A stretch of 64,000 nt of DNA, taken from NCBI GenBank assembly GCA_028718185.1, contig JAQUMH010000002.1:4088-68087 (forward strand). Direction: 5' to 3'. Of the stretch, positions 47,192-62,148 are shown piece after piece. A program made the translations under genes and the position numbers. The notes beneath the pieces were generated by a model that searched no databases, had not been told where the DNA came from, and saw only the letters and a list, made by a program, of their open reading frames with translations. The stretch's first letter is position 1, and each line of letters opens with the position of its first letter. This DNA comes from Elusimicrobiota bacterium. Lineage in GTDB: Bacteria; Elusimicrobiota; UBA8919.

Positions 47192-50100
47192 TTATTCTAT
47201 AAGCCGTTTAAAATAATCTTTTATTATTGTTTCATATTTTTGCGGATATTTTTGTCTGAGTGATTCAATTATTGATTCCCTGAATTCTTTTGGCGGCTTA
47301 TATTCGTCGATTGAAGGTATTTTTACGAAACCTTCCCTGAACCCCGTATAACCGCCTTCTTTATTACCTCTATTCCCGCGTGTTCTAAATTTACCACCCA
47401 TCCCCATTGAACCTTTGCCCCCCATACTACTCGCCTGTCCCATTTGACTTAAAGCGCCTTCTAACCCCTCTTTACCACTTAACAAATCATTGAGCGCTTT
47501 TTTTTCAAAATCAACTGCTGACGGGTCATTGGCGTTTGAAAGTTCATCACTAGCCGAACCCATCGCTTCCTGGGACGATAAAATCTTTTTGGCAGCATCT
47601 GACGGTATGGAAAGCGTCTTGCTTAATATTCCAAGGACTTTTTTGTGCAGTAATTGTGCCTGTTTTTGATTTAATTTTTGTGTTTTTGACAGTTGATTAT
47701 GCTTTTCTAAATCGTTTTCTGTAAAAATACTTGTTTTTGGCGGTGCAAATTTCTTCAATTCATTAAGAATCTCCTGTTCAATAGTTTTGCTTGATAAAAC
47801 ATATTCAGCAGATTTTTTAATATTTACATTTTTGGATATATTTTCAAGTTCCGCTATTATTGTTATTAATAATTCATTTGACTTTTCAATTTTTTCATCG
47901 GTAAATTCCTTTAAAACAATTCCCATCTGGGTTTCAGGCTGGACATAAAGATTAAAAACAGACGGATGTGTTGTTGTGCTTTTTTCAATAATTGTTTTTG
48001 AATCGTTGAGTCTGGACATTGCCAATTTCTGTTTTTCTACAAGTTTTTTAAGCAATTCTTTTTGCAATGACAATATCTTCTTTGCCCGTTGCATGTCCAA
48101 TTCCTGAGTACTATTCAAAATCTTCCGCTGTTCTTCTACTATCTTGTCCAGGTCATTAAGCGATTCTTCTGTTTCCTTTTGAAGTTTCTGCTGTGCACTG
48201 CTTGTTGTTGAATTTGAAGAATTTTCCATTGTATTAAGGATATCGGATATTTGCTTGCTGAGTTTTTCAGCAAGCTCTATCGCTTTATCAATATTACCGG
48301 ATTGAAGAGACCACTTCATTTCATCTGCTGCCGATCTCATTTCAGTAAGATCTATTTTTTTCACATTCTCATCGTTTGCAAAATCTTCCGGTAATTTTTG
48401 CGGCATTTCTGAAACTTTTTTTGATAATTCTTCCATCAGCTTGGAAAGTTTTTCATTTGCTTCCTGAAGTTTTTTCATCTTTTCCGGATCTGAAAAATTT
48501 TTCATATCTTTAAGATTTTGTTCTATATCTGACGAAGTATCCGCCATATCTCTTACAGTGGAAAGCATATCTTCCATTTTTTGTTTTTTAGCAATATCTT
48601 CTGAAAATACACCCAGTCTTTTAAGTTCTTCTATTATTTCATCCTGTACCCGTTCCGCATTATCATATTGTTTATTAGAAAGCGAATCCTCAGCTTCGTT
48701 CATTTTCTGTTCCCCGATTGTCTTTGCCGCTTCAAGTAAATTTTTATACTCTGAATATGCATTATAATCAGTTAACGGATCGTTTGCCATTTTTTCCACT
48801 GTCTTACTGAATTCATCTGTTGCTTTATTCATTAACTCCTGTGCATTTTTCTGCATATTAGCAGCATTTTCAATATCACGTTTAGCAAGTGATGTTCTGC
48901 TCTGAAGCTGTCTGGATAATATTTCCTGCAATTTCCTATTGAAATCAGATATTTCATCTTCTATAATTTTGTGTTCCATTTCATATGACATAACCTCAAT
49001 ACTATATGTTTTTGAATTTCCGGTTAAATGAGCAGGATAAATATTATTATCTGCAACTTCAAGACGATATTGGATTACATCGCCCGGTTTCAACCCCAAA
49101 TCAGCTACTGATATTTCATAATCATCTAATATTTTCTGTGTAGGTTTTATAAATGATTTTATTTTCACCTGTTTTTTAAGCGTTAAATAGTCTATATTGA
49201 TTTCTGATATCCCGAAATCATCTTCTGCGGAATAGATAATTTTTAATTTTTCATTTTCCGAAACTATAATATCGCAGGCAGGAGCAACTATTTCAATAAC
49301 AGGCGGACTGTTTTTAGTTACGCTAACCTTGTACTTCACGGGTTGCCTGTAGATATCCCCGTCAATAGAAACTGCTTCTATCCAGTATTCAGTTTGATTT
49401 TGTATTACAAATTGGGAAGTAATTAGATTTTTAGAAATATCCATTTTATTTTTTTCATTCATATCGGTTATCAAAAATGCTTCTTTGGCTTTTTTATTTG
49501 TCTGTGCAGTGATTTTAACCGTAGTACCTACCGGCGCTTCTATATCGCTTTCTTCAACAATTTTGTCCGGTAATCCTATGTATGAAGGATATATATATTC
49601 AAGTTTTATATCAGCGATTGTAAACGGCGAAGTTATTTTCACATCATACTTATGTGATTTATTGTCCAATACTACGACATAATATTCTGTATTATCTGTT
49701 ATTTTTTCAATAGCCTCCGCATATTCGCCTTTACCTGTTTTTTTCATTTTCTTTTTATGCCATTCACTGTTAGCTTCTCTAAAATAAAGATATGGCGTTG
49801 ATTTGTCAGGTTTAACAACTGCACGAATATTCACATCACTACCAAGATTAACTGAAATATCTCCTGGCAAAACTGCAATTTCCATCGCCGAAAGAAAAGG
49901 TATTAAATATCTTTTTAATTGAAGTGAATTGAAAAATAAAGCAAAATTCACCAGGAAAATTAAAAATACAATGATAATATTTTTCAATGGTTTGAAATCT
50001 GTGAATTTTTTTAATAAATCCTTAGAAATTTTTGATGATGTGATTCTTACGAATTCTTCGGCAAATAACGATGATGTTTCGGAATATTTATTATTTTTAA

Positions 50101-50413
50101 GTTGAATTGCATTTATCAAGTCATCTTTCAATGTGCTGTTTTTTTTCTGAATCAAAATCGCTATATCTTCATTTGCTGTTTTTAAATAAATTATTTTTAG
50201 TATTATCTTCATAATAAATACTATTGAAAACACAATCATTACCAGCCATAGAGAGACTCTTAATGCATATGACGATAAATTAAAAATATCGGCAAAATAA
50301 TTTATAAACACAATAAAAAACAAGAATATGAAGATTTTTGTAATATTTTCAACAATATACAAAAACATTATCCTCTTCTTTGTCTTTGATATTAAATTAT
50401 TTATATTATCCAT
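47192..50413 (-). CDS. DUF4175-family membrane protein with a very long coiled-coil/low-complexity region (terminal member of the Bat-associated cluster)
   Basis: 1073 aa. Two N-terminal TM segments are followed by DIAILIQKKNSTLKDDLINAIQL, a K/E/Q-rich centre and the C-terminal ...YETIIKDYFKRLIE. Confidence 0.6.
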   Translation of the reverse strand: MDNINNLISKTKKRIMFLYIVENITKIFIFLFFIVFINYFADIFNLSSYALRVSLWLVMIVFSIVFIMKIILKIIYLKTANEDIAILIQKKNSTLKDDLINAIQLKNNKYSETSSLFAEEFVRITSSKISKDLLKKFTDFKPLKNIIIVFLIFLVNFALFFNSLQLKRYLIPFLSAMEIAVLPGDISVNLGSDVNIRAVVKPDKSTPYLYFREANSEWHKKKMKKTGKGEYAEAIEKITDNTEYYVVVLDNKSHKYDVKITSPFTIADIKLEYIYPSYIGLPDKIVEESDIEAPVGTTVKITAQTNKKAKEAFLITDMNEKNKMDISKNLITSQFVIQNQTEYWIEAVSIDGDIYRQPVKYKVSVTKNSPPVIEIVAPACDIIVSENEKLKIIYSAEDDFGISEINIDYLTLKKQVKIKSFIKPTQKILDDYEISVADLGLKPGDVIQYRLEVADNNIYPAHLTGNSKTYSIEVMSYEMEHKIIEDEISDFNRKLQEILSRQLQSRTSLAKRDIENAANMQKNAQELMNKATDEFSKTVEKMANDPLTDYNAYSEYKNLLEAAKTIGEQKMNEAEDSLSNKQYDNAERVQDEIIEELKRLGVFSEDIAKKQKMEDMLSTVRDMADTSSDIEQNLKDMKNFSDPEKMKKLQEANEKLSKLMEELSKKVSEMPQKLPEDFANDENVKKIDLTEMRSAADEMKWSLQSGNIDKAIELAEKLSKQISDILNTMENSSNSTTSSAQQKLQKETEESLNDLDKIVEEQRKILNSTQELDMQRAKKILSLQKELLKKLVEKQKLAMSRLNDSKTIIEKSTTTHPSVFNLYVQPETQMGIVLKEFTDEKIEKSNELLITIIAELENISKNVNIKKSAEYVLSSKTIEQEILNELKKFAPPKTSIFTENDLEKHNQLSKTQKLNQKQAQLLHKKVLGILSKTLSIPSDAAKKILSSQEAMGSASDELSNANDPSAVDFEKKALNDLLSGKEGLEGALSQMGQASSMGGKGSMGMGGKFRTRGNRGNKEGGYTGFREGFVKIPSIDEYKPPKEFRESIIESLRQKYPQKYETIIKDYFKRLIE

Positions 50414-50447
50414 AATTATTAAATATTATGTGGCTATTGAAAAATTT

Positions 50448-52292
50448 CTATTTTATTAATTTCCCCTTTGCTATTTCAAGATACTTTTTTGCTTCACTGT
50501 TATTTGGATTATTTTTAATTACAGTTTGTAATTCAACAATAACTTTCTTCCAATCGCTTTTTTGCCAATATAAAATTGCGAGCTCATAATGTACATCTGT
50601 ATAATTTGGATTTAAACGTAAAGCCTCTTTGAATTCTTTTATTGCAGCATCAGTGTTGTTAACGCGGGGGAACATTCTGCCTAGATTAAAATGAATATCA
50701 GCATTATTTGTCATATCATAAACAAATATAGAATACCCTATTTTATCTACAGGTTCGTATTTTTTTAACCAATCGAAAGCATGAATATCACCTAAATATA
50801 AACCTTGCAGATAAGTGGCACTTACAGCTAAAAGATTCTGTCCCTTTTTATTTACATAATCAACTTCCGGAGAACAGACAGGCGTTAGTATATGCTGTCC
50901 CTTTAGTCCATAGTACATTGAGTCACCTTGTCCAAAATAACACTCTACTAAATTTGCCGGTTTTACTTTATCAATATATTTTTTAAGACCCTTTAAATCC
51001 TGCCCCCAGTCAAGATTTGATTCTACAACATATTTCCACCCGTTCTTTGGTCCGCCGATAAACTCATTAAAATATGCCAGATGATGAGGGAATATACGTA
51101 CAGCCGAATAAAGATACCACAGACAAAGAAATAACACTGCCATTTTTTTTACTATCTTGCTATTTGCATTAACTGCGTTAAAAACATTAACCACACTTCC
51201 TGCCAATACAAAAAGGAACGGGTAAACAGGCAGTATATATCTTAATCCTAATTGTGTTTGACTTTTAGATGCACTAACAAAAAATATAAATGCCGGAAGA
51301 AAAACAAATATTTCATCATTATTCCACAAGCATTTCATATGCTTGTGGCTTATTTTTATCAAACTCCAAAACAACAATATTATAAATGGAACCGGCGTTT
51401 TTATTAAAAATGCTATTATAAAATAATACCACCAACCGCCTGACGAATAGCTTCCCATTAGAAAATTAGGATTTCCTGCTTCTTTTGTTTTAACAATTAT
51501 AGATGAAAAAACGATACTTATTCCTTTAAAATATGAACCTATACCTGTCACCCTGTAGGATAATAAAATAACACAACATGCAATAATAACAGAACTTATC
51601 AATCTCCACCATTTTTTGTTTAATTTATTATATTCAAAACCTGCTAAAAGCATAAATACAGGAACAAGCACTATACTCGAGACTTTTGATACCTGAGCCA
51701 AACCAAAACAAAACCCTACTAATAAAGCATTTAACCAAGTTTGTTTTTTAGAAAATTTCCAGAAAAAATATACACTTAAAAATATAAAAACCGTTACCCC
51801 AAAATCCGTTGTTGCAATTCCAGAATGCGATATAATGTCAGCTGAGAAAGAATAAAGAAATAATGTCAATAACCCCGCCTTCACCCCATATAACCGGCTT
51901 GAAAATTTGAAAACAAAAAAACCCAGCAAAAGAGCCAGAATAAATATCGGTATTCTGCCAAGAAAAAGTATTTTATCAGCACTTGTTGTATTTTCATATA
52001 GGAACTTTTTTCCGTAAGCAAATAGTTCTCCGGCATTGTCTTTTAAATTTTCCGGAGGAAGAGGCGGAAGTTTTAATTTAAGCGGTAATAGAAAACTTGC
52101 AGATAACATTCTCAAAAAAGGCGGATTATTCGGTGCAAAACTAAAATCCCCTGTTTTTAAATTATAATACCCTACAGCTAAATAATGCGGTTCGTCATAA
52201 ACCGGGCATTTCGTCCATGGACCAAATGCAACCTGGAGTCCAAAAACAATAAAAAGAAACATAATAATCAGCAATTCAATCTTTCTATTCAT
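50448..52292 (-). CDS. GT-C fold glycosyltransferase, family 39 (ArnT/PMT-like) with C-terminal TPR repeats
   Basis: 614 aa. A first-loop acidic motif (YDEPHY) is followed by about 11 TM segments. The C-terminal TPR region includes AIKEFKEALRLNPNY..HYELAILYW. Confidence 0.65.
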   Translation of the reverse strand: MNRKIELLIIMFLFIVFGLQVAFGPWTKCPVYDEPHYLAVGYYNLKTGDFSFAPNNPPFLRMLSASFLLPLKLKLPPLPPENLKDNAGELFAYGKKFLYENTTSADKILFLGRIPIFILALLLGFFVFKFSSRLYGVKAGLLTLFLYSFSADIISHSGIATTDFGVTVFIFLSVYFFWKFSKKQTWLNALLVGFCFGLAQVSKVSSIVLVPVFMLLAGFEYNKLNKKWWRLISSVIIACCVILLSYRVTGIGSYFKGISIVFSSIIVKTKEAGNPNFLMGSYSSGGWWYYFIIAFLIKTPVPFIILLFWSLIKISHKHMKCLWNNDEIFVFLPAFIFFVSASKSQTQLGLRYILPVYPFLFVLAGSVVNVFNAVNANSKIVKKMAVLFLCLWYLYSAVRIFPHHLAYFNEFIGGPKNGWKYVVESNLDWGQDLKGLKKYIDKVKPANLVECYFGQGDSMYYGLKGQHILTPVCSPEVDYVNKKGQNLLAVSATYLQGLYLGDIHAFDWLKKYEPVDKIGYSIFVYDMTNNADIHFNLGRMFPRVNNTDAAIKEFKEALRLNPNYTDVHYELAILYWQKSDWKKVIVELQTVIKNNPNNSEAKKYLEIAKGKLIK

Positions 52293-52303
52293 ATATTAAG
52301 AAA

Positions 52304-52396
52304 CACGAATTATCACGAATGTTATGACACATCACGAATTTATCACGAATATTCGTATCCTATTCGTGATTTTTTGGTTATTCGTGTTCATTCGTG
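52304..52396. repeat. ~93-nt imperfect palindrome built from 4 direct CACGAAT units and 4 inverted ATTCGTG units, symmetric about 52350/52351
   Basis: CACGAAT is at 52304, 52314, 52333 and 52344. ATTCGT(G) is at 52351, 52362, 52380 and 52390. The central ACGAATATTCGT is a perfect 12-nt palindrome. The last unit supplies the final codons (IHE-stop) of the 726-aa ORF. Confidence 0.8.
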
Positions 52397-54568
52397 TATT
52401 TGAGCGTTTTTCCTTGCCATGTAAAGATATTTCTGGGCATCGATATTGTTTGGATTGATTTTTAGAGTTTTTTCAAGTTCTTCAATAACTTTATCCCATT
52501 TATTAAGACGCCAATATGCCACTGCCATATTATAGTGTGCATCCATATAATCGGATTTAATTTTGACTGCTTCGTTATATTCGGAAATAGCTTCATTAGT
52601 TTTGTTTTGTTTTTCATAAATAGTCCCAAGATTATTATAAACAATTGCCCAATCGTAAAGAATTGAATCAACCACTTCCGGAAAAGACTTATATTCAATT
52701 GCATCATTGTACATTTTTGTATAATATTTTATTGATTCCTTATAGTAATACTCGGTTTTTTCTAAATCATTTTTTTGATAATAAAGCCAGCCGAGATTAT
52801 AATATATAGAAGGATAATCTTCTTTTATTGATATTGCTTCATTAAATTTTATTATTGCATCTTTTTCTTTATCTTCCCTCATAAAGAAAAGACCTGCTTT
52901 GAACAAAGAATCGGCATATTGTGAGATAATTTTCTGTGTAAAAAAATCCGGATATGCAGATGCATTGAGAACGCTTCTCTTTATGTAAAATTCCACAAAA
53001 TTAACCGGCTTATCAAATACTGTTTTTATATCTTTTACCTGAAAAACCAGCCCATAAGGATAAACATAATATTTCTGACCAAGCATTTCGTAATCTTCAA
53101 CATCACTTGTAAAACAGACATTCCTGTTTTTATTGAATATATAAAACTGGGAAAATGTATCCGGATTATTTAATGAAAAAACATCCGTATTTTTATATTT
53201 TTTTAACGTTTCCTGATACCATTTACTTCCCGAAAGTCCTTTTGCTATAACTGTAATATCATTACGTTTATTTTCCACATACTGTAAATACCATTCTGAA
53301 AAAACCTGAATATCTTCTCTTGATATAATTATTGAATTGGCCGGAAGAGACCTGAAAACGTTCCTTGCAAAATCGTATGCAGTAAAATTATTACGCATAT
53401 TTTGTTTACCTATATTTAATGTAAATAACCATATTGGAATTATTAAAAAAATAATAGAAACCGTTTTTAACTTTCGGGACACAAAATATATCCCGAAACC
53501 AAACCACAAAGCAAGCATTAAATCAGAAATTAAATAGTGCGGTTCCACAATTGCAAGTGCATACGGGTTAGGCGGCATTTTAGCAATTGTAATGAAAAAA
53601 GGTCCTGTGATAATGTAAATCATTAATGTTGATATCAAAAAATCCTTTTTTGCTTTATACAAATATAAAAATCCAAAAAATACTATCGGAATACCAATAA
53701 TGGTAAATAGATTAAAAGTTCTTTCTAAATAGACCTTCATTCCCGAGTAAAAAACATCACTGATTTTATATCTTGTGGAGATTAAATCCAATGTTTTCCC
53801 GTGCGTTTTACGGGTAATTGTATCCATTACTGTCTGTATATTATCGGGTTTATTCCAATTTAGATATGGCTGAGTTTTTGACCTTGCAGGCAAAAATGCA
53901 AATATAGAAAAACCAAGAAAAAACAGAATTACATAAGTAATTATATTTTTAATTGAAAAAAGGTTTTGTATTTTACTCTTTACAACCCAATATAAAATCC
54001 CGGGAACAATTAAAATTATCTCAATACGGTTGCCTGTCGCTAGCCCTAACAGGAAAGAAACGAGTAACAAGTAACGAGTAGTGAGTAATAAATAAATTAT
54101 CAATACAATAAAAAAGATGTTTAGAGTATACATTTCCGCGACTACTGAAACAGACCATAAGGTCTTGGAAAAAGCAAAAATAAGAACAGGTAAGCAGGCG
54201 GATAATAAGAAAGCGGGATTGTGCGATTGTGGGATTGTGGAATAGAGAGAGTGCGGGATTGCGGGATTGTGGGATTGCGGGATAGAAAAAGAACAGGTCA
54301 ACTGCTTTATAATCAAATATATGATACTACAAGTTAAAGCGCCAAAAACAGCACTCATGCAGTTTACACGATAGGCTATATTTCCGAATGGAATTAAAAT
54401 TGTAAAGATTTTTCCAAGAACCACATATAACGGATACCCGGGCGGGTGAGCTATTCCATACTTGTAACAAACAGATACCATCTCTCCTGCATCACGATAG
54501 ATTGCAACCGACGGGAACAATGTATAAACAAACACCCAAAATGTTAATAAAAACAAGAAATAAATCAT
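52388..54568 (-). CDS. DUF2723 (TMEM260-like GT-C) membrane protein with C-terminal TPR repeats, paralog 1
   Basis: 726 aa. The N-terminus is YRDAGEM....GIAHPPGYPLYVVLGKIF...PFGNIAYRVNCMSAVFGALTC, followed by many TM segments and a TPR tail. Confidence 0.65.
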   Translation of the reverse strand: MIYFLFLLTFWVFVYTLFPSVAIYRDAGEMVSVCYKYGIAHPPGYPLYVVLGKIFTILIPFGNIAYRVNCMSAVFGALTCSIIYLIIKQLTCSFSIPQSHNPAIPHSLYSTIPQSHNPAFLLSACLPVLIFAFSKTLWSVSVVAEMYTLNIFFIVLIIYLLLTTRYLLLVSFLLGLATGNRIEIILIVPGILYWVVKSKIQNLFSIKNIITYVILFFLGFSIFAFLPARSKTQPYLNWNKPDNIQTVMDTITRKTHGKTLDLISTRYKISDVFYSGMKVYLERTFNLFTIIGIPIVFFGFLYLYKAKKDFLISTLMIYIITGPFFITIAKMPPNPYALAIVEPHYLISDLMLALWFGFGIYFVSRKLKTVSIIFLIIPIWLFTLNIGKQNMRNNFTAYDFARNVFRSLPANSIIISREDIQVFSEWYLQYVENKRNDITVIAKGLSGSKWYQETLKKYKNTDVFSLNNPDTFSQFYIFNKNRNVCFTSDVEDYEMLGQKYYVYPYGLVFQVKDIKTVFDKPVNFVEFYIKRSVLNASAYPDFFTQKIISQYADSLFKAGLFFMREDKEKDAIIKFNEAISIKEDYPSIYYNLGWLYYQKNDLEKTEYYYKESIKYYTKMYNDAIEYKSFPEVVDSILYDWAIVYNNLGTIYEKQNKTNEAISEYNEAVKIKSDYMDAHYNMAVAYWRLNKWDKVIEELEKTLKINPNNIDAQKYLYMARKNAQIHE
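54061..54095. repeat. 7-nt tandem units (CGAGTAA/CAAGTAA/CGAGTAG/TGAGTAA/TAAATAA) inside paralog 1, encoding part of a TM helix
   Basis: Read directly. A related array is at 56012-56053 in paralog 2. Confidence 0.6.
54213..54284. repeat. Nine consecutive 8-nt units (GCGGGATT/GTGCGATT/GTGGGATT...) in frame in paralog 1 (72 nt)
   Basis: The 8-nt register is kept over 54213-54284. It is translated as SIPQSHNPAIPHSLYSTIPQSHNPAF. Confidence 0.8.
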
Positions 54569-56529
54569 AATCTTTTTTTAGCTATTTCCAGATAATTTTT
54601 CACATCAGCTCTTTCCGGATTTATCTGTAAAACTTTTTCAAATTCTTCCACCACACCCTGCCAGTTTTTCATATCCCAGTATAAAGCTGCTAAACTATAA
54701 TGTGCATCTTCATAATTTGGGAATATTTCAATGGCATTTTTAAACATTAATATCGCCGTATTTTTTTGATTAGTTTCAATATAATACTTTGATAATGTAA
54801 GATAATAAAAATAAGCTAAAATAGCATCACGAAACCTCGAATACTTTCCTCTTAATGCATAAATATAAGAAAAATCATGTTGAGGCATTTCCTTGTTAAG
54901 TGAATATAAAAGCCCTGCATTATAAAATTTCATATCACTGAAATAATCAGGATTTTCAGCTAAATAATAAGTGCTTTTCCCGCTATCTAAAATCATTTTT
55001 CTTTCAATCGGCAACCTAACCATCCGCCTTTCACTACCCTTAATCCAATAATACCTATCACCATATATGTTGGGAAAAACACTTGCATTACAGTCAAAAA
55101 CATCTACTGTCGGCCTTCTTTTTTCAACTATTTTCTGATATGCAAGAATAAATACAGATTCATCTGCTTTATCCAGAAAAAGCAATGAGTTATTTGAAAC
55201 AGTTTTCAAAATATTTTTGCCGAGGTCAAACGGGAAGAAATTGTATCTTAAATTGTTTCTTTGAAAGTTTGCCGAAAACTGGAAAACCAAAAATCCTGTT
55301 ATAAAAATATAAGCCACGAACGTGCAAACCGCTTTATGGTAAACCCAGGTTGTTTTATCGACTATATACTTTACCCCCATACCAATCCATATTGCGAATA
55401 TTATTACTGAAGGTATGTGAAAGGGTTCGAGCAGGTCTCTCGTAGAATCATCTACAGGTTTATTAGCCAAAAACATAAAAATTGGTCCAGAAAAAAAGAA
55501 GATTAAAAATAGAAACCAAAAATATTTCTTTTCTTTTTTATAATTATAAATAAAACCGGTAATTCCTAAAATAGATCCAAAGACAGTAAATGAATCTACG
55601 ATATTTTTAATATATTCCCAAAGCTGCTGCATCAGCAGAGGCAGGGGTCTAAATAAATATCCCCCTTTCTCTTCAATATGCATTACACCGCCGTATCCTA
55701 TCCTGAAAACTACTCTTAAAAAATTTATAAACTTACCGGGATTGTCCCAATTGGCTATCGGATTTTGGCGGGAACGAATAAACAAATATAAATATAGTGA
55801 AAAACCAAGTAAAAAAAATAGCGTCCAATGTCCGATGTCCCTGCCCCGTGGCAAGGCGGGCGATGTCCAATGTCTTAAAGGTTTATTTTGAACTGAGTTT
55901 GCTCCGCTCAAAACAGGATACTTAGGACTTTGGAGTATTAAATATAACATACCGGGAAATAAAAGTACTAGTGTATGGTGGTTACAAAGCCCTAAACCGA
56001 ATAAGAAAGAAATGAGTAACGAGTAACGATTAACGAGTAATAAATAAATAATCAATATGACAAAAAACGCGTTTAATGTGTATATCCCGCCTTTTGTCTG
56101 GACACATTGAGACCAAAATATATTAGAAAAAGCTAAGAAAAAGGCGGATAAGAAAGCGGGAAAGCGGGAAAGTGGGAAAGCGGGATTGTGCGATTGAGAG
56201 ATAGCGGAATCGTGGGATTGTGCGATTGTGGGATTGTGGGATAGAGGGTCAGCGGACGAGCTGGTAAGATGCTTCATTAACAAATACATTATACCGCAGG
56301 TTAATGCTCCGAAAAAGACGCTCATGCAATTTACACGATATGCTATGTTTCCATAAGGGATTAAAATTGTAAATATCTTCCCAAGCAACACATACAACGG
56401 ATATCCCGGCGGGTGACTAATACCCAAAACGTACGAAGAAGTTATAAGTTCGCCACTATCGCCTGTACATACAGTAGGTGAAGAAGTGAATAGTAATATT
56501 CCTAAGTTTATCAAAAATACTATTATCAT
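54565..56529 (-). CDS. DUF2723 (TMEM260-like GT-C) membrane protein with a short C-terminal TPR region, paralog 2
   Basis: 654 aa. The N-terminus is TGDSGELITSSYVLGISHPPGYPLYVLLGKIF..PYGNIAYRVNCMS. There are 4-nt overlaps with both neighbours. Confidence 0.65.
   Translation of the reverse strand: MIIVFLINLGILLFTSSPTVCTGDSGELITSSYVLGISHPPGYPLYVLLGKIFTILIPYGNIAYRVNCMSVFFGALTCGIMYLLMKHLTSSSADPLSHNPTIAQSHDSAISQSHNPAFPLSRFPAFLSAFFLAFSNIFWSQCVQTKGGIYTLNAFFVILIIYLLLVNRYSLLISFLFGLGLCNHHTLVLLFPGMLYLILQSPKYPVLSGANSVQNKPLRHWTSPALPRGRDIGHWTLFFLLGFSLYLYLFIRSRQNPIANWDNPGKFINFLRVVFRIGYGGVMHIEEKGGYLFRPLPLLMQQLWEYIKNIVDSFTVFGSILGITGFIYNYKKEKKYFWFLFLIFFFSGPIFMFLANKPVDDSTRDLLEPFHIPSVIIFAIWIGMGVKYIVDKTTWVYHKAVCTFVAYIFITGFLVFQFSANFQRNNLRYNFFPFDLGKNILKTVSNNSLLFLDKADESVFILAYQKIVEKRRPTVDVFDCNASVFPNIYGDRYYWIKGSERRMVRLPIERKMILDSGKSTYYLAENPDYFSDMKFYNAGLLYSLNKEMPQHDFSYIYALRGKYSRFRDAILAYFYYLTLSKYYIETNQKNTAILMFKNAIEIFPNYEDAHYSLAALYWDMKNWQGVVEEFEKVLQINPERADVKNYLEIAKKRL
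55821..55874. repeat. GTCCAAT/GTCCGAT 7-nt units flanking a GC segment, in frame in paralog 2
   Basis: GCGTCCAATGTCCGATGTCCCTGCCCCGTGGCAAGGCGGGCGATGTCCAATGTC was read directly. It is the reverse-complement vocabulary of the GACATTG array at 62100-62134. Confidence 0.65.
56152..56247. repeat. Twelve consecutive 8-nt units (4x GAAAGCGG-type, then GATTGTGC/GATTGTGG-type) in frame in paralog 2 (96 nt)
   Basis: The register is kept over 56152-56247. It is translated as ADPLSHNPTIAQSHDSAISQSHNPAFPLSRFPAF. Confidence 0.8.
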
Positions 56530-58787
56530 TTTTTTAGTATTGCCAGATACTTTTTTGCTTCGGAATGAGCAGGATTAAGCTGTAATACAGTTTCAAATTC
56601 TTCAACAACACCTTTCCAGTATTTTATTTTCCAATAAGCAACACCCAGATTATAGTGTGCATCAACATAATAGTATTTTAGCGATATTGCTTTTTTATAT
56701 TCGGATAATGCTGCTTCATTTTGATTTGTCTTCTCATACAAAACACCAAGATAACAATGCGGTTCCGCAAGCTCCGGACTTGCTTCCGAAGATTTCATAT
56801 AATCGTCTTTTGCTTCTTCATATTTATTTATTTGGAATTTTTCATACCCCCTTGTCAAATAAATAAATGCAAGATTATTCCTGATGTTTTCATCGTAGGG
56901 ATTTATTTCAATACCTTTTCTATATCTTACAATTGCCTCTTCAATAAATCCTTTTTCTTTGAGTGAAATTCCGATATTATTATAAACCCATTCTACATCT
57001 CCGCCGTTTTGTCCGGCTTTATCATATTCTTTTAACATTTCATCATTTTTCTTGTCTTTATAATATTTTTCAGCAAGAAAATAGTGGTATTGCGAAGAAA
57101 CATCTCTCAAAAGGTATTCACTTAAATAATTTTTATTATCTATACCACGAGTTACATATACCTGCCACAAATCATAATTAACGTTCAGCGGTTTTGCTTT
57201 ATATATTATTCCTGAAATATCAGATTTGACATCCCTTAAATTTGAAAAACTACTACCTAACGAAAAACATATAGGTCTTGCTTGTTTTAATAGTTCTCTT
57301 TGAACATACTCCCTTCTTTCCTGCTTTTGTTCTTTTGTAAGTTGAAAGAAATCATCACCATAAACATTCTTAAATAAAAGTCCGGTATCGGTATAAAAAG
57401 AAACATCTAACCGTTTTTTTAGGCACCATTGCTGGTAAGACAGAAGAAACATCTGATTATCACCTGAAGAGAAAAAATGTGAATTTTTGGGAAGAGACTT
57501 TATAATATTTGAAGAATAATCATATGCTACAAAATTATTTCTTTTGCTATTATAATTAAAATTCATAATGACAGGTAAAATCAAAAGGCAGGAAAATAAA
57601 GAAAGTTTTAAATATTCAGAAGGTTCCCCCCTAGTTTTGTCTAACGATAAAACTGGCAGGGGGGTACTTTTTTTGAATTTATTAAAGGTAAAAATGCGAA
57701 AAAAGTAAAAAAAGCCAATCCCTAGCCAAATAGCCATAACGGTATAGGCAGGTAGATAATAAACTTCTACAACGGATGTTTGCTGCGGATTGAATTGAAA
57801 TCTTAAAATAAAGATTAGACCTAAACCGTTTAATAAAAATAATCCTACAGTAAGAATACATATTTTTTTACACGATTTATAAAATTTTATTAAACCAAAC
57901 AATACAAAAGGTAACATATAATATGTGAATTGTTCACCTGCAAGTTTAAAATAATGTTTTATAAACAACAACTTTGTCGAAAATGTAACTTTTTGTCCGA
58001 ATTCATATGATTTATATTGAACACGCCTGATATGTGCTATAAAATTATGCAATGTTCCTGTATTTCCCTGATTCATTAGAGGATTTTCCAAAGACCGGAC
58101 AGGCATAGATACCAGAATCGTCAAAGCCAGCAATATAAAAAATATACAAATAATAATATTAGCAAAAGGTTTATTTTTCCCAAAGAGATTCTTCCAGTAA
58201 AAAACTAAAAATGCAATTAGCAATAATCCGGAAATATAATGTCCTGCTATGCTTAATCCCGCAATAAAAGAAAACAAATAAATATTTTTATTTTTCAATA
58301 CTGATATATAGATAAGTAATACAATAAAAAACGAAGTTAGGGTATATATACCGCCTTTAGCTATAACACTTTGCGACCAGAAAGTTTTAGAAAAAGCTAA
58401 AAATAACGCAGGAAGACAGGCGAATAAGAAAGTGGGATTGTGGGATTGTGGGATTGTGGGATAGCGGAATAGCGAAGCAGAAGATGAGGAGATAAGCTGT
58501 TTCATAACCAAATACACAATTCCGCATGTTAATGCGCCGAAAACGGCGCTCATTATGTTTAATCTATATGCAATATTTCCGTAAGGTATTATGAATGTAA
58601 ATATTTTTCCAAGCAATACATACAATGGATACCCGGGCGGATGAGTAATACCCAAAGTATATGCCGCAGTTGCAAATTCTCCGCTATCACCCACATAAAC
58701 TGTAGGGCATAATGTTATTAGATATATCCCTAATGATAATAAATACACTAAAATCATTGCAGACCGCTTCTCCTTCGTAAAAACCAT
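56526..58787 (-). CDS. DUF2723 (TMEM260-like GT-C) membrane protein with extended C-terminal TPR repeats, paralog 3
   Basis: 753 aa. The N-terminus is VGDSGEFATAAYTLGITHPPGYPLYVLLGKIF..PYGNIAYRLNIMSAVFGALTC, with a long TPR tail. Confidence 0.65.
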   Translation of the reverse strand: MVFTKEKRSAMILVYLLSLGIYLITLCPTVYVGDSGEFATAAYTLGITHPPGYPLYVLLGKIFTFIIPYGNIAYRLNIMSAVFGALTCGIVYLVMKQLISSSSASLFRYPTIPQSHNPTFLFACLPALFLAFSKTFWSQSVIAKGGIYTLTSFFIVLLIYISVLKNKNIYLFSFIAGLSIAGHYISGLLLIAFLVFYWKNLFGKNKPFANIIICIFFILLALTILVSMPVRSLENPLMNQGNTGTLHNFIAHIRRVQYKSYEFGQKVTFSTKLLFIKHYFKLAGEQFTYYMLPFVLFGLIKFYKSCKKICILTVGLFLLNGLGLIFILRFQFNPQQTSVVEVYYLPAYTVMAIWLGIGFFYFFRIFTFNKFKKSTPLPVLSLDKTRGEPSEYLKLSLFSCLLILPVIMNFNYNSKRNNFVAYDYSSNIIKSLPKNSHFFSSGDNQMFLLSYQQWCLKKRLDVSFYTDTGLLFKNVYGDDFFQLTKEQKQERREYVQRELLKQARPICFSLGSSFSNLRDVKSDISGIIYKAKPLNVNYDLWQVYVTRGIDNKNYLSEYLLRDVSSQYHYFLAEKYYKDKKNDEMLKEYDKAGQNGGDVEWVYNNIGISLKEKGFIEEAIVRYRKGIEINPYDENIRNNLAFIYLTRGYEKFQINKYEEAKDDYMKSSEASPELAEPHCYLGVLYEKTNQNEAALSEYKKAISLKYYYVDAHYNLGVAYWKIKYWKGVVEEFETVLQLNPAHSEAKKYLAILKK
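57626..57664. repeat. Hairpin module CCCCCCTAGTTTTGTCtaacGATAAAACTGGCAGGGGGG in frame in paralog 3
   Basis: It has the same design as the intergenic module at 47083-47125. It is translated as TPLPVLSLDKTRGEP. Confidence 0.7.
58432..58475. repeat. GTGGGATT x3 perfect plus 2-3 degenerate 8-nt units, in frame in paralog 3
   Basis: Units begin at 58432, 58440, 58448, 58456 and 58464. It is translated as ..RYPTIPQSHNPTF. Confidence 0.8.
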
Positions 58788-60808
58788 TCAATTGAAAGTA
58801 ATATAATTAGAAGAATATAGATTATAGGCTTATTCCAAATATTTATTTCATATAAAAGATCTGACTGTGTTGTCCGTGGCTTAATCTCTAGTTTATTAAA
58901 ATTAAACTCTTCAATTGACATAAATTTGCCATTAGTCAAATCTGCTACTTCTTTCATAAACGGTTCATTAACAAAATTTGATTCTAATTCTTTTGAGACG
59001 TCAAAAACATTTAAGGATATGTTATCATTTCCCAAAAATTTCTTATTATAATACGCCTGCGCTTCTAACTTATACTCGCCTGCTAAATTAATTTCAGTGC
59101 TAAACTCATACTCGCCATTCTCAATTCCCGGAGGGACAGCAATAGATTCTTTTTTACCGTCAGGTGTTTGTATTCTTACACTTACAATTGCATTATCTAC
59201 GGGTTTAAAGTATTCATCCTTTACTCGCATTTTTATCTTTGCAATATCGCCTATATTATAGTTATTTTTTGCTATTATAGCCACCTGTTTCATTGATGCG
59301 GCATTCGTCAACCATTTTATTGACTGTCCGAAAAACTTTACGTAATTATATGAGTTATCGCTACCAAGCGCCAAGCGCCACATAGATGGAGTAAGAATAC
59401 ACATAACCCTGCCTTTATCTTTTTCTTTAATTGTAATAACCGGATATTTTGATTTTTCGGTTTCAGCAAGAACAATGGTTTTTTCTCTGACTGCAGCAAT
59501 ATTTACACTATCCAGTTCCGGCATGTTTTTCCAGATAGCATCATTAGAAACCGGGTCATCTACGAGTCTCATTATGCCATGTTCGGGGTGCAAAACGTTT
59601 AATCCATATTTAGCCGATGAAATATCAGAAGACGGGGTTATCGGTAAAATTTCATTAATCGGCGTGTTTTGATATATGTCCAATGGCACTTCCCCGCCGA
59701 TTATTAAAAGTGCTTTGCCGTATTCAGTAACAAAATTTTTAATATTCATAAGATACTGTGTGCTGATAGGAAATTTAAAAAAATTAAAATTATCAAATAT
59801 AAGCAAATCAAAGTTAAAGATTTCCCTTGAAAATATTTCTTCAACAGGAAAAGGAATAAGCGAAAGCTCGTTATCTGATACAGCAACAACATTTTCAGGA
59901 TTTCGCAATATTACAAACGATACAAGTTCAACATTGGGATTATTTTTAAGAGTGTTCCTCAGGAAAGAATAATTAAATGACGGCTGCCCGCAAAGATATA
60001 AAATACGTATTTTTTCCGGTTCAACATTCAGGACAAACTTTTTCTTATTATCCGAAAAATCTTTTTCCCCCTCATAAGTAGGTATTTCAATTACATAAGA
60101 AACCGAACCAGCTTCTTCAGGTATAACTTCAAAAGGGACTTCGAATACACCGTTGTTTTCAATATCCAATATTTTAGTTTGCAAAACGATTTTATTGCTG
60201 GTTTTAAGAAAAATTGATATTTTTTTACCTATAAAACCGGTGCTGTTTATATTCGCGACAATTGTAGTGTTAACATTTCTAAAAACAATATCCGGTACTT
60301 CAACATTACCAATTGAGATATTTTTCTGTAGATTAGAAATTTCCGGAATAACAGCAAAAACAGGTATTTTCAAATCACCCAGCTCGCTTAACACTTCTTT
60401 TGAATCTTTATTGATATTTTGATTCCCATCTGAAAATAAAATTATACTATCAATATCTTTGCCTATAAAATCAGTTTTTATCTTTTCTAATGCTCCGGTT
60501 ATATCCGTTTTCTTCCCTTTAGATTTCAATGATTCTACTTCTTTTTCAGAAACATTCCTTATATTATCTGAAAATGCAAAGAAGAACGGTTTAACTTTGT
60601 TATTTTTAACAAGTTGCAAATTTACCTTACTTTTTATTTGTTCAAAACCTTTTTGACTTATATATCCCATGCTTTGAGAATCATCGATTAAAGCAATAAC
60701 CGTAGGAATATTTCTTTTTTTATATACCTTTTTAACCGGCTGAAAAACAAGCAGAATTATAACTATAAATATCAGTATCCTTAAAATCAAAAGTATTTTC
60801 TTTATCAT
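58754..60808 (-). CDS. Membrane-anchored vWA-like / GATase1-like protein of the Bat-associated cluster
   Basis: 684 aa. An N-terminal TM is followed by VIALIDDSQSMGY (a DxSxS MIDAS-like motif). The central RILYLCGQPSFNYSFLRNTL resembles the DUF1355/GATase1-like block. There is a C-terminal TM. Confidence 0.5.
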   Translation of the reverse strand: MIKKILLILRILIFIVIILLVFQPVKKVYKKRNIPTVIALIDDSQSMGYISQKGFEQIKSKVNLQLVKNNKVKPFFFAFSDNIRNVSEKEVESLKSKGKKTDITGALEKIKTDFIGKDIDSIILFSDGNQNINKDSKEVLSELGDLKIPVFAVIPEISNLQKNISIGNVEVPDIVFRNVNTTIVANINSTGFIGKKISIFLKTSNKIVLQTKILDIENNGVFEVPFEVIPEEAGSVSYVIEIPTYEGEKDFSDNKKKFVLNVEPEKIRILYLCGQPSFNYSFLRNTLKNNPNVELVSFVILRNPENVVAVSDNELSLIPFPVEEIFSREIFNFDLLIFDNFNFFKFPISTQYLMNIKNFVTEYGKALLIIGGEVPLDIYQNTPINEILPITPSSDISSAKYGLNVLHPEHGIMRLVDDPVSNDAIWKNMPELDSVNIAAVREKTIVLAETEKSKYPVITIKEKDKGRVMCILTPSMWRLALGSDNSYNYVKFFGQSIKWLTNAASMKQVAIIAKNNYNIGDIAKIKMRVKDEYFKPVDNAIVSVRIQTPDGKKESIAVPPGIENGEYEFSTEINLAGEYKLEAQAYYNKKFLGNDNISLNVFDVSKELESNFVNEPFMKEVADLTNGKFMSIEEFNFNKLEIKPRTTQSDLLYEINIWNKPIIYILLIILLSIEWFLRRRSGLQ

Positions 60809-60857
60809 ATATTTCCACTAAAAATACAATAGTTTTTTGTCGGGTACATTTTCGTTC

Positions 60858-60950
60858 GAGATTGCTTCGCTAACGCCTACCTACCGTCATGCAGGCTCAC
60901 AATGACAAATCTGCCTGTCATTGCGAACTGACTCATCGTGAAGCAATCTC
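60858..60950. repeat. Family A palindromic element (with nested CCTACCTACCGTCATGCAGG hairpin) abutting and overlapping the GIY-YIG stop codon
   Basis: GAGATTGCTTCGC...CACAATGAC is at 60858-60905 and GTCATTGCGAAC...GAAGCAATCTC at 60917-60950. Both were read directly. Confidence 0.8.
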
Positions 60951-61251
60951 ATAAGTTATTATACAAATCAGTCCACCTTGAATTCATAATTTCAACTAAC
61001 TTAATTTTCTTATTTCTTGAACCCGCTTTTATTTGTTTTTCTCTGCTTATTGCATCTACTGGATTTTCAAAAACTTCATAATAAACAAGTTTATTAATGT
61101 TGTATTTTTCAGTGAAACCTTTTACAATTTTATTTTTATGTTCATAAACTCGCTTTTTTAAGTTGCTTGTTATTCCCGTATAAAGAACTGTATTGTTCTT
61201 GTTTGTTAAAATATAAATTGAATAATACTTTTTCATTTGAGATTGCCCCAT
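60949..61251 (-). CDS. GIY-YIG nuclease superfamily protein (small UPF0213/COG2827 type)
   Basis: 100 aa. Motifs YSIYILTNKNNTVLYTGITSNLKKRVYEH, NKLVYYE and REKQIK. Confidence 0.8.
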   Translation of the reverse strand: MGQSQMKKYYSIYILTNKNNTVLYTGITSNLKKRVYEHKNKIVKGFTEKYNINKLVYYEVFENPVDAISREKQIKAGSRNKKIKLVEIMNSRWTDLYNNL

Positions 61252-61285
61252 AAAAGGGATTTACAACTTCGTCATCCCAAACATT

Positions 61286-61313
61286 GAGATTGCTTCGCTA
61301 CGCTCGCAATGAC
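61286..61313. repeat. Family A half-element GAGATTGCTTCGCTACGCTCGCAATGAC upstream of the GIY-YIG gene
   Basis: Read directly. It lies about 35 nt upstream of the GIY-YIG start codon. Confidence 0.8.
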
Positions 61314-61353
61314 TTCATGTTTAACAAACATTTTAAACAACACTTGTGTCTAT

Positions 61354-62148
61354 TCATCTTAGTTTGTTTTGTATAAATGATTTGTGTATGCTGTCGGACT
61401 TGTATGTACCGGTTAAAGCATACATTATAATATTAAGTGTTAATTTCTTGGCTTCCCACCTCTGCTGTTCTTCGCAAGGATAAATATAATTACCAAGATT
61501 GTCTTTTTCCCATGCACCTAATAAATCATTCTGTGAGTATATAATGCTATAGCGTTCACCTATTTTGCAGCCTTCCAAATATCTATTTACAACAATTCTT
61601 CCTGATGTATTTTTTAACAAGTAAAAAGATTTAAATATTGCATCGTTCATAGGTATTTTTTCAAGCGGATTTTCAGAAAGCAGTTTTGCAATAGTAGTCC
61701 TAATTAACTTGTCAAACCCAAAACCTTTTTTACCTGATGAATCATCAATAAAAATCATTCCACCACCTTGTATATACTTTTTAAGCATCTTTAACTCATT
61801 ATCCGTCAATTGCGGAAAATCAGAGTCACCTGTAATTACAATAAAGGGCGACCAGAAAAGTTCCTCTTCTGTTATCCTGATAATCCGCCTCTGCGGCACA
61901 ACCTTCACGCTTGTTGTCATGACCAGGTATTCCGAAATTCTATCCCATGCTGTTTGCCGCATATCCCATTTACCCGCATATTGCAGCTGGCTAAAAACAA
62001 ATTTGCCCCCTTGCTGGCAGTAAAGATTGTCCGAAGTCCAAAGTCCGAAGTCCGAAGTCAATAAAACCATAACAAAAATAAATATGAACCATTTAGCATG
62101 ACATTGGACATTGGACATCGGACGTTGGACATTTTTTTTATTTATCAT
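61354..62148 (-). CDS. DUF4159 domain protein (Bat-associated cluster)
   Basis: 264 aa. After the signal region, FVFSQLQYAGKWDMRQTAW and GGMIFIDD fit the DUF4159 pattern. It overlaps the upstream vWA gene by 4 nt. Confidence 0.55.
   Translation of the reverse strand: MINKKNVQRPMSNVQCHAKWFIFIFVMVLLTSDFGLWTSDNLYCQQGGKFVFSQLQYAGKWDMRQTAWDRISEYLVMTTSVKVVPQRRIIRITEEELFWSPFIVITGDSDFPQLTDNELKMLKKYIQGGGMIFIDDSSGKKGFGFDKLIRTTIAKLLSENPLEKIPMNDAIFKSFYLLKNTSGRIVVNRYLEGCKIGERYSIIYSQNDLLGAWEKDNLGNYIYPCEEQQRWEAKKLTLNIIMYALTGTYKSDSIHKSFIQNKLR
62038..62134. repeat. Two 7-nt tandem arrays in the 5' end of the DUF4159 ORF: GTCCGAA-type x5 (62038-62072) and GACATTG-type x5 (62100-62134)
   Basis: Read directly. 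They are translated as ..LTSDFGLWTSD.. and ..NVQRPMSNVQC... Confidence 0.8.

Follow-up and report, generated by a model that had tools for sequence, protein, structure and literature searches.

Short tandem repeats inside genes belong to a kind of sequence that is already known: simple sequence repeats (SSRs) in coding regions, G-rich SSR families, and in-frame selfish DNA have all been recognized. The present work deals with tandem arrays of an 8-nt unit in three adjacent DUF2723 genes of an Elusimicrobiota bacterium. The arrays lie in a stretch of 64,000 nucleotides (GenBank assembly GCA_028718185.1, contig JAQUMH010000002.1, positions 4,088 to 68,087 of the forward strand), which is called the window here and whose own numbering is used throughout. 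Several described systems come close to them. The lic2A and lgtC genes and the lgt genes of Neisseria represent simple-sequence contingency loci in glycosyltransferase genes. The short tandemly repeated repetitive (STRR) sequences of cyanobacteria are heptamer tandem repeats. Rickettsia palindromic elements, reportedly described by Ogata and co-workers in 2000, are selfish DNA whose copies stand in frame within protein-coding genes; they measure 100–150 bp, lack a tandem-unit structure, and are scattered across many genes that have no relation to one another. Simple-sequence contingency loci include, for instance, the tetranucleotide tracts in the lipooligosaccharide genes of Haemophilus influenzae (review PMC2651432). 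The GGGNATC repeats of Xanthomonas and Nostoc are heptameric and G-quadruplex (G4)-forming, with a preference for four units. They are mainly intergenic, on the antisense strand upstream of open reading frames (ORFs), and coding sequence is under-represented among their sites (Rehm et al. 2015, PMC4692102). The TAACTGA heptamer repeats of Beggiatoaceae are overwhelmingly intergenic and are found occasionally in ORFs at the protein periphery (MacGregor 2015, PMC4679880). As for the proteins, the described relative is TMEM260, with 11 transmembrane (TM) helices, a first luminal loop that holds D52 and H67 of the donor site, D441 as the catalytic base, and luminal C-terminal domains (preprint 10.64898/2026.03.17.711096).

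In the window, all three genes carry their octamer arrays in the loop predicted between TM helices 2 and 3, and the same loop of related genomes is filled with unrelated repeats. With moderate confidence, this site is regarded here as a permissive cytoplasmic loop holding non-triplet SSR arrays typical of the lineage, which would be held in frame by purifying selection, homogenized among paralogues, and quickly replaced between genomes.

Octamer arrays in three DUF2723 paralogues

The host genes and the arrays within them are the following.

52388..54568, minus strand: paralogue 1, a putative TMEM260-like/DUF2723 GT-C glycosyltransferase with C-terminal tetratricopeptide repeats (TPR), 726 amino acids (aa), PF11028 at E=3e-33
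54213..54284, minus strand: loop array of paralogue 1, about nine CACAATCC-type octamers encoding IPQSHNPAIPHSLYSTIPQSHNPA, period 8 by Tandem Repeats Finder (TRF)
54565..56529, minus strand: paralogue 2 (P0040), 654 aa, PF11028 at E=1e-34
56182..56246, minus strand: loop array A of paralogue 2, CACAATCC-type, about eight degenerate units, TRF periods 8 and 24
56152..56185, minus strand: loop array B of paralogue 2, 4.2 units of the sense unit CCGCTTTC, encoding PAFPLSRFPAF
56526..58757, minus strand: paralogue 3 (P0001, annotated in an NCBI Elusimicrobia metagenome-assembled genome, MAG), 743 aa, PF11028
58432..58462, minus strand: loop array of paralogue 3, 3.9 perfect AATCCCAC units (TRF, 100% matches), with degenerate units on to about 58475

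The coding-strand unit reads CACAATCC, part of paralogue 2 having CCGCTTTC instead, and the arrays encode (I/T)PQSHNP(T/A). They lie about 270–380 nt into the ORFs, at codons ~95–125 of 654–743. In paralogue 1, TRF describes a period of 8 at 54215-54283 (8.6 copies, 77% matches) and also a period of 16 from 54213. Array A of paralogue 2 has a period of 8 at 56182-56242 (7.6 copies, 75% matches), its top-scoring description being a period of 24 over 56179-56246, and array B has a period of 8 with the plus-strand unit GAAAGCGG (4.2 copies, 92% matches). A pattern of two consecutive units, allowing up to two mismatches, has 16 matches in the window where 1.9 would be expected; no shuffle out of 100 gave as many, and 14 of these matches fall inside the three arrays. 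Furthermore, codon-shuffled controls of the window held zero arrays of 7-, 8- or 10-nt units.

The family PF11028 (TMEM260-like, formerly DUF2723) is assigned to the host genes at 113–120 bits, the gathering cut-off being 24.2, and the Pfam scan places TPR repeats at the C-terminus of all three. Each neighbouring pair of these minus-strand genes overlaps by 4 nt. The proteins are 31–39% identical in pairwise comparison, and the genes are old duplicates.

These results agree largely with an earlier note on this DNA, made from its letters and a list of its ORFs. The note had placed period-8 arrays at a common loop of three DUF2723 paralogues, which both formal repeat detection and the PF11028 matches bear out, and translation returns the units and the peptide PQSHNP(T/A)(I/F) that it described, with the difference that the note wrote the units on the plus strand while the genes lie on the minus strand. 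Its statement that the array lengths of paralogues 1 and 2 are multiples of 24 fared less evenly. The boundaries had been drawn by eye and amount to no test; what can be kept is that paralogue 1 is longer than paralogue 3 by an alignment gap of 8 codons, equal to three units, and that paralogue 2 has a 24-nt super-period.

Position of the arrays in the protein

The AlphaFold2 (AF2) model of paralogue 3 has a mean predicted local distance difference test score (pLDDT) of 88.9. The array-encoded residues occupy a coil at 97–108, between the helices 62–96 and 109–121, where pLDDT falls below 50 at residues 96–103 and the means of the 10-residue blocks are 53 and 58. The array region is thus predicted to be a disordered and structurally unconstrained TM2-TM3 loop.

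In a sequence search, residues 5–456 of paralogue 3 match the structure of human TMEM260 (PDB 9rql) at E=1.3e-24. Moreover, D24, H39 and D433 (paralogue 3 numbering) are invariant in an alignment of 33 homologues that includes all three paralogues, and from the numbering offsets, as distinct from a residue-by-residue alignment, they likely correspond to D52, H67 and D441 of TMEM260. Owing to this homology, the TM2-TM3 loop is expected on the cytoplasmic side, opposite to the active site across the membrane. A Foldseek search of the PDB gave mostly TPR matches, together with PglB at a TM-score of 0.41. As the TMEM260 entry surfaced by sequence and not by Foldseek, the topology rests on homology and on the preprint. 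The choice between a periplasmic and a cytoplasmic loop, both of which the earlier note had allowed, is thereby settled in favour of the cytoplasmic side as far as homology to TMEM260 can carry it, and the description of the loop as hypervariable stands.

The same loop in related genomes

Orthologues of the three genes were compared in three related genomes, denoted L001, L003, and L004, where the window paralogues are 59–87% identical to their own orthologues. For paralogue 1 the orthologue is the third DUF2723 gene of each genome, at 64–69% identity, and for paralogue 2 the identity is 59–62%. All nine DUF2723 genes of these genomes have tandem arrays at exactly this loop, built from unrelated units of 7, 8 or 10 nt. 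In L003, the units are GTCCGAA and then GACATTG in all three genes. Two genes of L001 carry GAGGACA and then TCTACGC, and the third carries two 10-nt units, while the units of L004 are of GATATGA, GGTAGAC, and GGGACAG type. The loop peptides of the orthologues bear no resemblance to PQSHNP.

Even closer relatives differ at this site. P0003 and P0121 belong to the same cluster at 90% identity, yet their loop modules read ..EDRGQRTEDRNLRSTLC.. and ..GDGRRETGDGKPFTFYLLP.., respectively, and the modules of P0053 and P0125, again from one 90% cluster, are likewise different. Differences in length within such clusters come from alternative start codons or from replacement of the module, not from unit number. 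Outside the clade, the loops of outgroup proteins that are ~60% identical to paralogue 3 (P0005, P0039, and P0061; loci L067 and L068) are non-repetitive, and in many homologues at greater distance the loop is either non-repetitive or very short. A metagenome scan with paralogue 3 returned two loci only, both of the array-free outgroup type at ~61% identity. The comparison of orthologues, one of the checks that the earlier note had proposed, therefore shows that the peptide is not kept with non-repetitive codons or in any other form, that the loop tolerates almost anything, and that turnover takes the form of whole-module replacement. The proposal of a hypervariable loop made by simple-sequence expansion is well supported, as the loop is a low-confidence coil whose sequences are unrelated among orthologues and non-repetitive in distant homologues.

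This comparison also bears on the peptide itself. PQSHNP(T/A)(I/F) might be a functional motif under selection at the protein level, such as a proline-rich binding site on the cytoplasmic face, and an identical peptide period is indeed found in all three paralogues. The eight-residue period of PQSHNPTI nevertheless follows from the DNA, because a unit of 8 nt is read in all three phases over three units. Orthologues at 59–87% identity, and even members of one 90% cluster, have unrelated loop peptides; codon use in the arrays is more uniform than a constraint on the protein requires; and the region is predicted to be disordered. A functional peptide is hence very improbable and is largely ruled out by the orthologues, and PQSHNPTI is a by-product of the DNA rather than a selected motif.

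Gene conversion among the paralogues

Conversion tracts are seen in the relatives. In L003, the DNA of the DUF2723 genes p1 and p2 is 96–100% identical over roughly alignment columns 40–140, their proteins being 37% identical overall, and synonymous third positions match at 35 of 39, 30 of 33, and 21 of 21 sites. The loops and flanks of p1 and p3 in L001 are ~93% identical as read by eye, and in a further genome a GDGRRET module is common to three paralogues (P0121, P0125, and P0037). Judged from these alignments, the 5' regions of the paralogues appear to undergo gene conversion within the genomes of the clade.

In the window, DNA identity among the paralogues in the 5' array region is 72–80%. 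Third positions are identical at 15 of 18 to 18 of 23 sites in the arrays; for the motif region, which is more conserved, the figure is 18 of 35. At their 3' ends all three arrays have an identical codon phase, and a derived variant, CAATCGCACAATCCCGCTTTC, is common to paralogue 1 and the 3' end of array A in paralogue 2. The shared phase, the third-position identity, and the shared variant together indicate that the three arrays are homologous copies and not independent insertions. The conversion signal in the window seems older than that in the relatives, but it is present, and conversion of the 5' region would explain how paralogues that are only 31–39% identical share one octamer.

Proposed phase variation

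The earlier note had read each array as a contingency locus. In a fuller form of this reading, slipped-strand mispairing would alter the unit number, a change of one or two units would truncate the enzyme around TM3, and three glycosyltransferases would switch independently and so diversify envelope glycosylation, against phage for instance. A non-triplet unit placed in the 5' quarter of glycosyltransferase genes suits such a role. The arithmetic of the note, by which only steps of three units keep the frame and slippage by one unit truncates the protein, was confirmed by simulation: adding or removing one or two units produced a stop at residues 115–188, and a change of three units was silent and left a full-length protein. 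Additionally, each paralogue has a near-perfect block of four units, and an enrichment of SSRs near N-termini, as far as the work of Lin and Kussell (PMC3315296) is relayed in PMC4692102, is consistent with phase variation.

Other observations make contingency loci unlikely. The perfect tracts amount to about four units (3.9 perfect units in paralogue 3 and 4.2 units at 92% in array B), and the other arrays match at 75–77%. A look-up of paralogue 2 in other assemblies gave a single further contig, the Logan contig SRR22315506; it is 100% identical to 52464-57353, a span of 4.9 kb in which the arrays of both paralogue 1 and paralogue 2 lie. The listed matches of the protein-collection search included neither variant nor truncated alleles, and close relatives differ by module replacement rather than by unit number. 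All 12 genes compared, namely the three of the window and the nine orthologous ones, are intact and in frame, with no frameshifted allele among them. The relatives P0123 and P0124 lack the N-terminus, and the loci L069 (1-26) and L070 (1-67) begin right after the TM2-TM3 loop module; both proteins start at contig ends, which excludes them as frameshifted OFF alleles, and the truncation is an assembly break at a multi-copy module. Furthermore, similar arrays occur in neighbouring genes of other families and in several loops per gene, which would demand implausibly many independent switches. The 4-nt overlaps of the genes may imply translational coupling, and an OFF state could then be polar on the genes downstream. 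Of the proposed contingency loci, the frame arithmetic thus survives, but the tracts are short or degenerate, and neither unit-number variants nor frameshifted alleles were seen.

G-quadruplex motifs and hairpins

A regular-expression scan placed one G4 motif in the arrays of each paralogue.

54255..54281, plus strand (template strand): G4 motif in paralogue 1, (G3N5)x3-G3
56158..56184, plus strand (template strand): G4 motif in paralogue 2, inside array B
58434..58460, plus strand (template strand): G4 motif in paralogue 3

They are the only canonical (G3N1-7)x4 motifs in the 64 kb, of which 34% is G+C, and all three are exactly G3N5G3N5G3N5G3 on the template strand. The G-rich octamers that are candidates for G4 formation are GGGATTGT and GGGAAAGC, and the motif of paralogue 2 belongs to the GAAAGCGG block rather than to the GGGATTGT block. 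Folding of the sense strand gives z-scores of -1.1 to +1.2 for the window loops, which are without an inverted partner array, so that a hairpin reading of the window octamer arrays is ruled out. The nine orthologous loops, by contrast, fold as hairpins with z-scores of -2 to -9. No Rfam match with an E-value up to 1 was found in 52000-62500.

The octamer also has a wider distribution. Three or more consecutive copies of CACAATCC were found in 61 stretches from many phyla, the window's own genome not being among them, which rules out that the octamer is peculiar to the genome of the window. Two Gemmatimonadota MAGs and one Bacteroidetes MAG each contain at least a dozen copies. By a crude extension rule, the commonest length in other phyla is 4–5 units, and in at least two of the 14 arrays inspected, an evident start codon follows directly and the C-rich strand is the sense strand.

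From these data it could be argued that the arrays are kept for a non-B structure, a predicted G4 here and hairpins in the relatives, which would affect transcription, the stability of the mRNA or the speed of translation right after the synthesis of TM2. The confinement of all G4 motifs of the window to these arrays, with that of paralogue 2 in a different unit family, and the hairpins of all nine orthologous loops fit such an element. The usual length of four to five units elsewhere, the occasional position upstream of start codons, and the C-rich sense strand also match the four-unit preference and placement of the G4-forming GGGNATC repeats (PMC4692102). However, any four intact GGG-containing units yield the motif automatically, and the three motifs are an unexplained regularity. 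Hairpin potential can likewise be a by-product of the way in which inverted arrays arise. As the window loops are unstructured on the sense strand, no single type of structure is conserved in the clade; outgroup orthologues are entirely without arrays, Rfam gives no match, and the distribution of unit counts depends on the crude extension rule. Selection for a nucleic-acid structure is accordingly an improbable account of the arrays.

Other arrays in the window and in related genomes

Additional arrays were found in paralogues 1 and 2 and in a neighbouring gene.

54055..54080, minus strand: second hotspot in paralogue 1, TM4-TM5 loop, heptamers GTTACTT/GTTACTC encoding TTRYLLLVSF (TRF)
56014..56040, minus strand: second hotspot in paralogue 2, TM4-TM5 loop, 3.9 copies of GTTACTC (TRF, 90% matches)
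55823..55874, minus strand: third hotspot in paralogue 2, TM6-TM7 loop, GACATYG heptamers flanking a GC-rich spacer and encoding ..RHWTSPALPRGRDIGHWT.. (read from the sequence)
62029..62133, minus strand: (CAATGTC)n and (CTTCGGA)n on either side of the N-terminal membrane anchor in gene 61354-62148 (TRF; hairpin z=-4.9)

By the order of helices in the model, the second and third hotspots would be the next two cytoplasmic loops. The GACATYG-type heptamer of the third hotspot recurs at 62100-62133 and in the loops of L003. Gene 61354-62148, placed by position and not by a family scan, sits where the relatives have DUF4159, and the heptamer pair at 62029-62133 is the one that occupies the TM2-TM3 loop in each of the three DUF2723 genes of L003.

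Array density was counted in the sampled loci for units of 7, 8 or 10 nt with at least three copies and a TRF score of at least 40. It reached 1.6–8.6 arrays per 10 kb in the clade, against 0 in shuffled controls and 0.8 in the outgroup. Under looser settings (period 7–11, TRF score of at least 30), where a few low-scoring AT-rich arrays may be chance, 14 of the 17 arrays of the window are intragenic and in frame, and nine of these 14 lie within the cluster at 52–62 kb. The picture is similar in L001, L003, and L004, where arrays are again mostly intragenic. In the genes of the cluster, arrays are placed in the loops or the N-terminal anchors of membrane proteins, and orthologues have different units at the same positions.

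The modules of the relatives usually have two arms, a purine-rich array and, after it, an approximate reverse complement of that array; charged residues are encoded by the first arm, and the next TM helix begins in the second. One module of L004, ~110 nt long and laid out as an array, the spacer GCAAAAAACT, and an inverted array, occurs in two non-homologous loops of one gene (11835-11945 and 12140-12270, ~85% identical by count). A second module of L004 is shared by two paralogues, being present in p3 at the TM2-TM3 loop and in p2 at the TM6-TM7 loop (7805-7915 and 10220-10330). Since these loops are not homologous, modules spread beyond homologous sites too, and the sequences suggest that the in-frame modules of L004 were copied ectopically or are mobile.

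The arrays could accordingly be copies of a small element, mobile or ectopically copied, that spreads among permissive coding sites in the manner of Rickettsia palindromic elements. Besides the two modules of L004, this would suit the GTCCGAA/GACATTG pair, which is found both in the DUF2723 loops of L003 and around the N-terminal anchor of a different gene in the window, and the contigs of relatives that break exactly at the module, as multi-copy DNA would. For the window itself, such an element is distinctly unlikely. Its octamer is not palindromic and is present in the three paralogues only, nowhere else in the 64 kb. The copies occupy homologous positions in the same codon phase with shared derived variants, for which descent and gene conversion suffice, and similar flanks at both types of loop (..VYLI.. 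and ..L[AG]FS) could drive ordinary ectopic conversion.

A wider possibility brings several of these features together. The clade may hold an undescribed class of in-frame, structure-forming SSR modules, made of paired inverted 7–10-nt arrays or of G4-capable arrays. Such modules would move by conversion or transposition between sites both homologous and non-homologous, colonize the cytoplasmic loops and N-terminal anchors of envelope-protein genes, and act as frameshift switches or as brakes on transcription or translation in a glycosyltransferase cluster with three paralogues. This idea is considered possible but doubtful.

Gene neighbourhood and side observations

The cluster is syntenic in L001, L003, and L004, with genes for MoxR, DUF58, BatA, DUF4159, a GATase1-like protein, three DUF2723 proteins, PMT_2, and DUF4175. 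In the window, this Bat/MoxR-type cluster spans 47192-63845; it is conserved in four genomes and holds four GT-C glycosyltransferase genes within an 'aerotolerance-operon'-like setting. A giant minus-strand ORF of 4192 aa is located at 20398-32976.

In three other ORFs, 7–8-nt arrays lie in frame at codons 13–37 (34107-34132, 35124-35151, and 47024-47049), for example four copies of ACTTCCT encoding TSYFLLPTSC, and they appear to be in N-terminal hydrophobic segments. At 1006-1072, two adjacent, mutually inverted octamer arrays, (AGGGTTTT/AGTTTTAG)n and (TAACCCTA)n, stand immediately 3' of the minus-strand ORF 1074-2147. Their units resemble telomere-type repeats, the hairpin z-score is -3.8, and the element looks like a terminator made of tandem repeats.

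Interpretation and significance

For the permissive loop with lineage-typical arrays, the following course of events can be proposed. The lineage would generate 7–10-nt tandem arrays at an unusually high rate, with slippage and conversion as the probable generators. Arrays would survive where an insertion is harmless, that is, in cytoplasmic loops and in the N-terminal anchors of membrane proteins, and selection would let pass only those length changes that keep the frame. Whole modules would be replaced between close relatives through fast array turnover, and within a genome, gene conversion of the conserved 5' region would homogenize the arrays among tandem paralogues. The loop would be neutral or permissive, and we infer no dedicated switching function.

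Several points weigh against this explanation. Support for gene conversion is weaker in the window, at 72–80% DNA identity, than in L003 and L001. Each paralogue retains one intact G3 block of four units, and these blocks make the sole G4 motifs of the 64 kb; they may point to selection on DNA structure instead of neutrality. The strong hairpins of the relatives can also indicate function, as a structure kept without conservation of sequence. Finally, near-perfect blocks of four units mean that the tracts are still dynamic, and some switching may occur.

If the permissive-loop explanation is true, non-triplet repeats can persist inside conserved enzymes where a cytoplasmic loop is permissive, a single short tract stays identical among old paralogues through gene conversion, and tracts are swapped wholesale between nearly identical proteins. 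This would be relevant to the evolution of SSRs outside pathogens. For annotation, it would mean that low-complexity loops encoded by repeats, and contigs that break within these genes, should not be taken for errors. Should the arrays switch, or act through G4 structures or hairpins, they would represent an undescribed contingency or regulatory system of Elusimicrobia with 7–10-nt units in envelope glycosylation genes. A targeted literature search did not find the combination of conserved loop hotspots, unit turnover, concerted evolution of paralogues, and structure-forming modules in Elusimicrobia envelope genes.

Comparison with known systems

The host genes share with the TMEM260/DUF2723 protein O-mannosyltransferases of GT-C type (PMC10214176; preprint 10.64898/2026.03.17.711096) the family PF11028, the match to 9rql, and the invariant Asp/His/Asp. 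As in TMEM260-like proteins, a TM core is followed by C-terminal TPR, and the secondary structure of the AF2 model suggests a Rossmann-like domain between them. Unlike TMEM260, the window genes are bacterial, are present as three tandem paralogues in a Bat/MoxR-type cluster, and are putative glycosyltransferases by homology. Repeat-filled cytoplasmic loops such as theirs are not a feature of the TMEM260/DUF2723 family.

The arrays resemble SSR contingency loci in being non-triplet tandem repeats in the 5' part of a glycosyltransferase ORF, where a change in unit number shifts the frame. Contingency loci, however, have long perfect tracts and documented unit-number polymorphism, whereas the tracts of the window comprise about four perfect units or are degenerate, with no polymorphism seen. 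Additionally, the unit is of 8 nt, the bacterium is an uncultured one known from a metagenome assembly and not a host-adapted pathogen, and the same loop is repetitive in relatives too, with other units.

With the GGGNATC repeats, the arrays have in common a G3-containing unit of 7–8 nt, blocks of four units, a G-rich strand that is antisense, and recurrence in many genomes. They differ in that the unit is octameric (GGGATTGY or GGGAAAGY), lies inside ORFs, and is in frame, the G4 here being a sequence motif. Similar to the heptamer repeats of cyanobacteria and Beggiatoaceae, the clade has lineage-specific families of short-unit arrays that are dispersed and tolerated in ORFs. Unlike those repeats, the arrays of the clade are mostly intragenic in the sampled loci, keep conserved loop positions, and change their units between close genomes. 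Rickettsia palindromic elements offer a parallel as repetitive DNA lying in frame at permissive protein sites, and the modules of the relatives, being hairpins that were copied to non-homologous sites, extend it. The octamer arrays of the window, on the other hand, are non-palindromic, with sense-strand z-scores of -1.1 to +1.2, and within the 64 kb they belong to three paralogues only.

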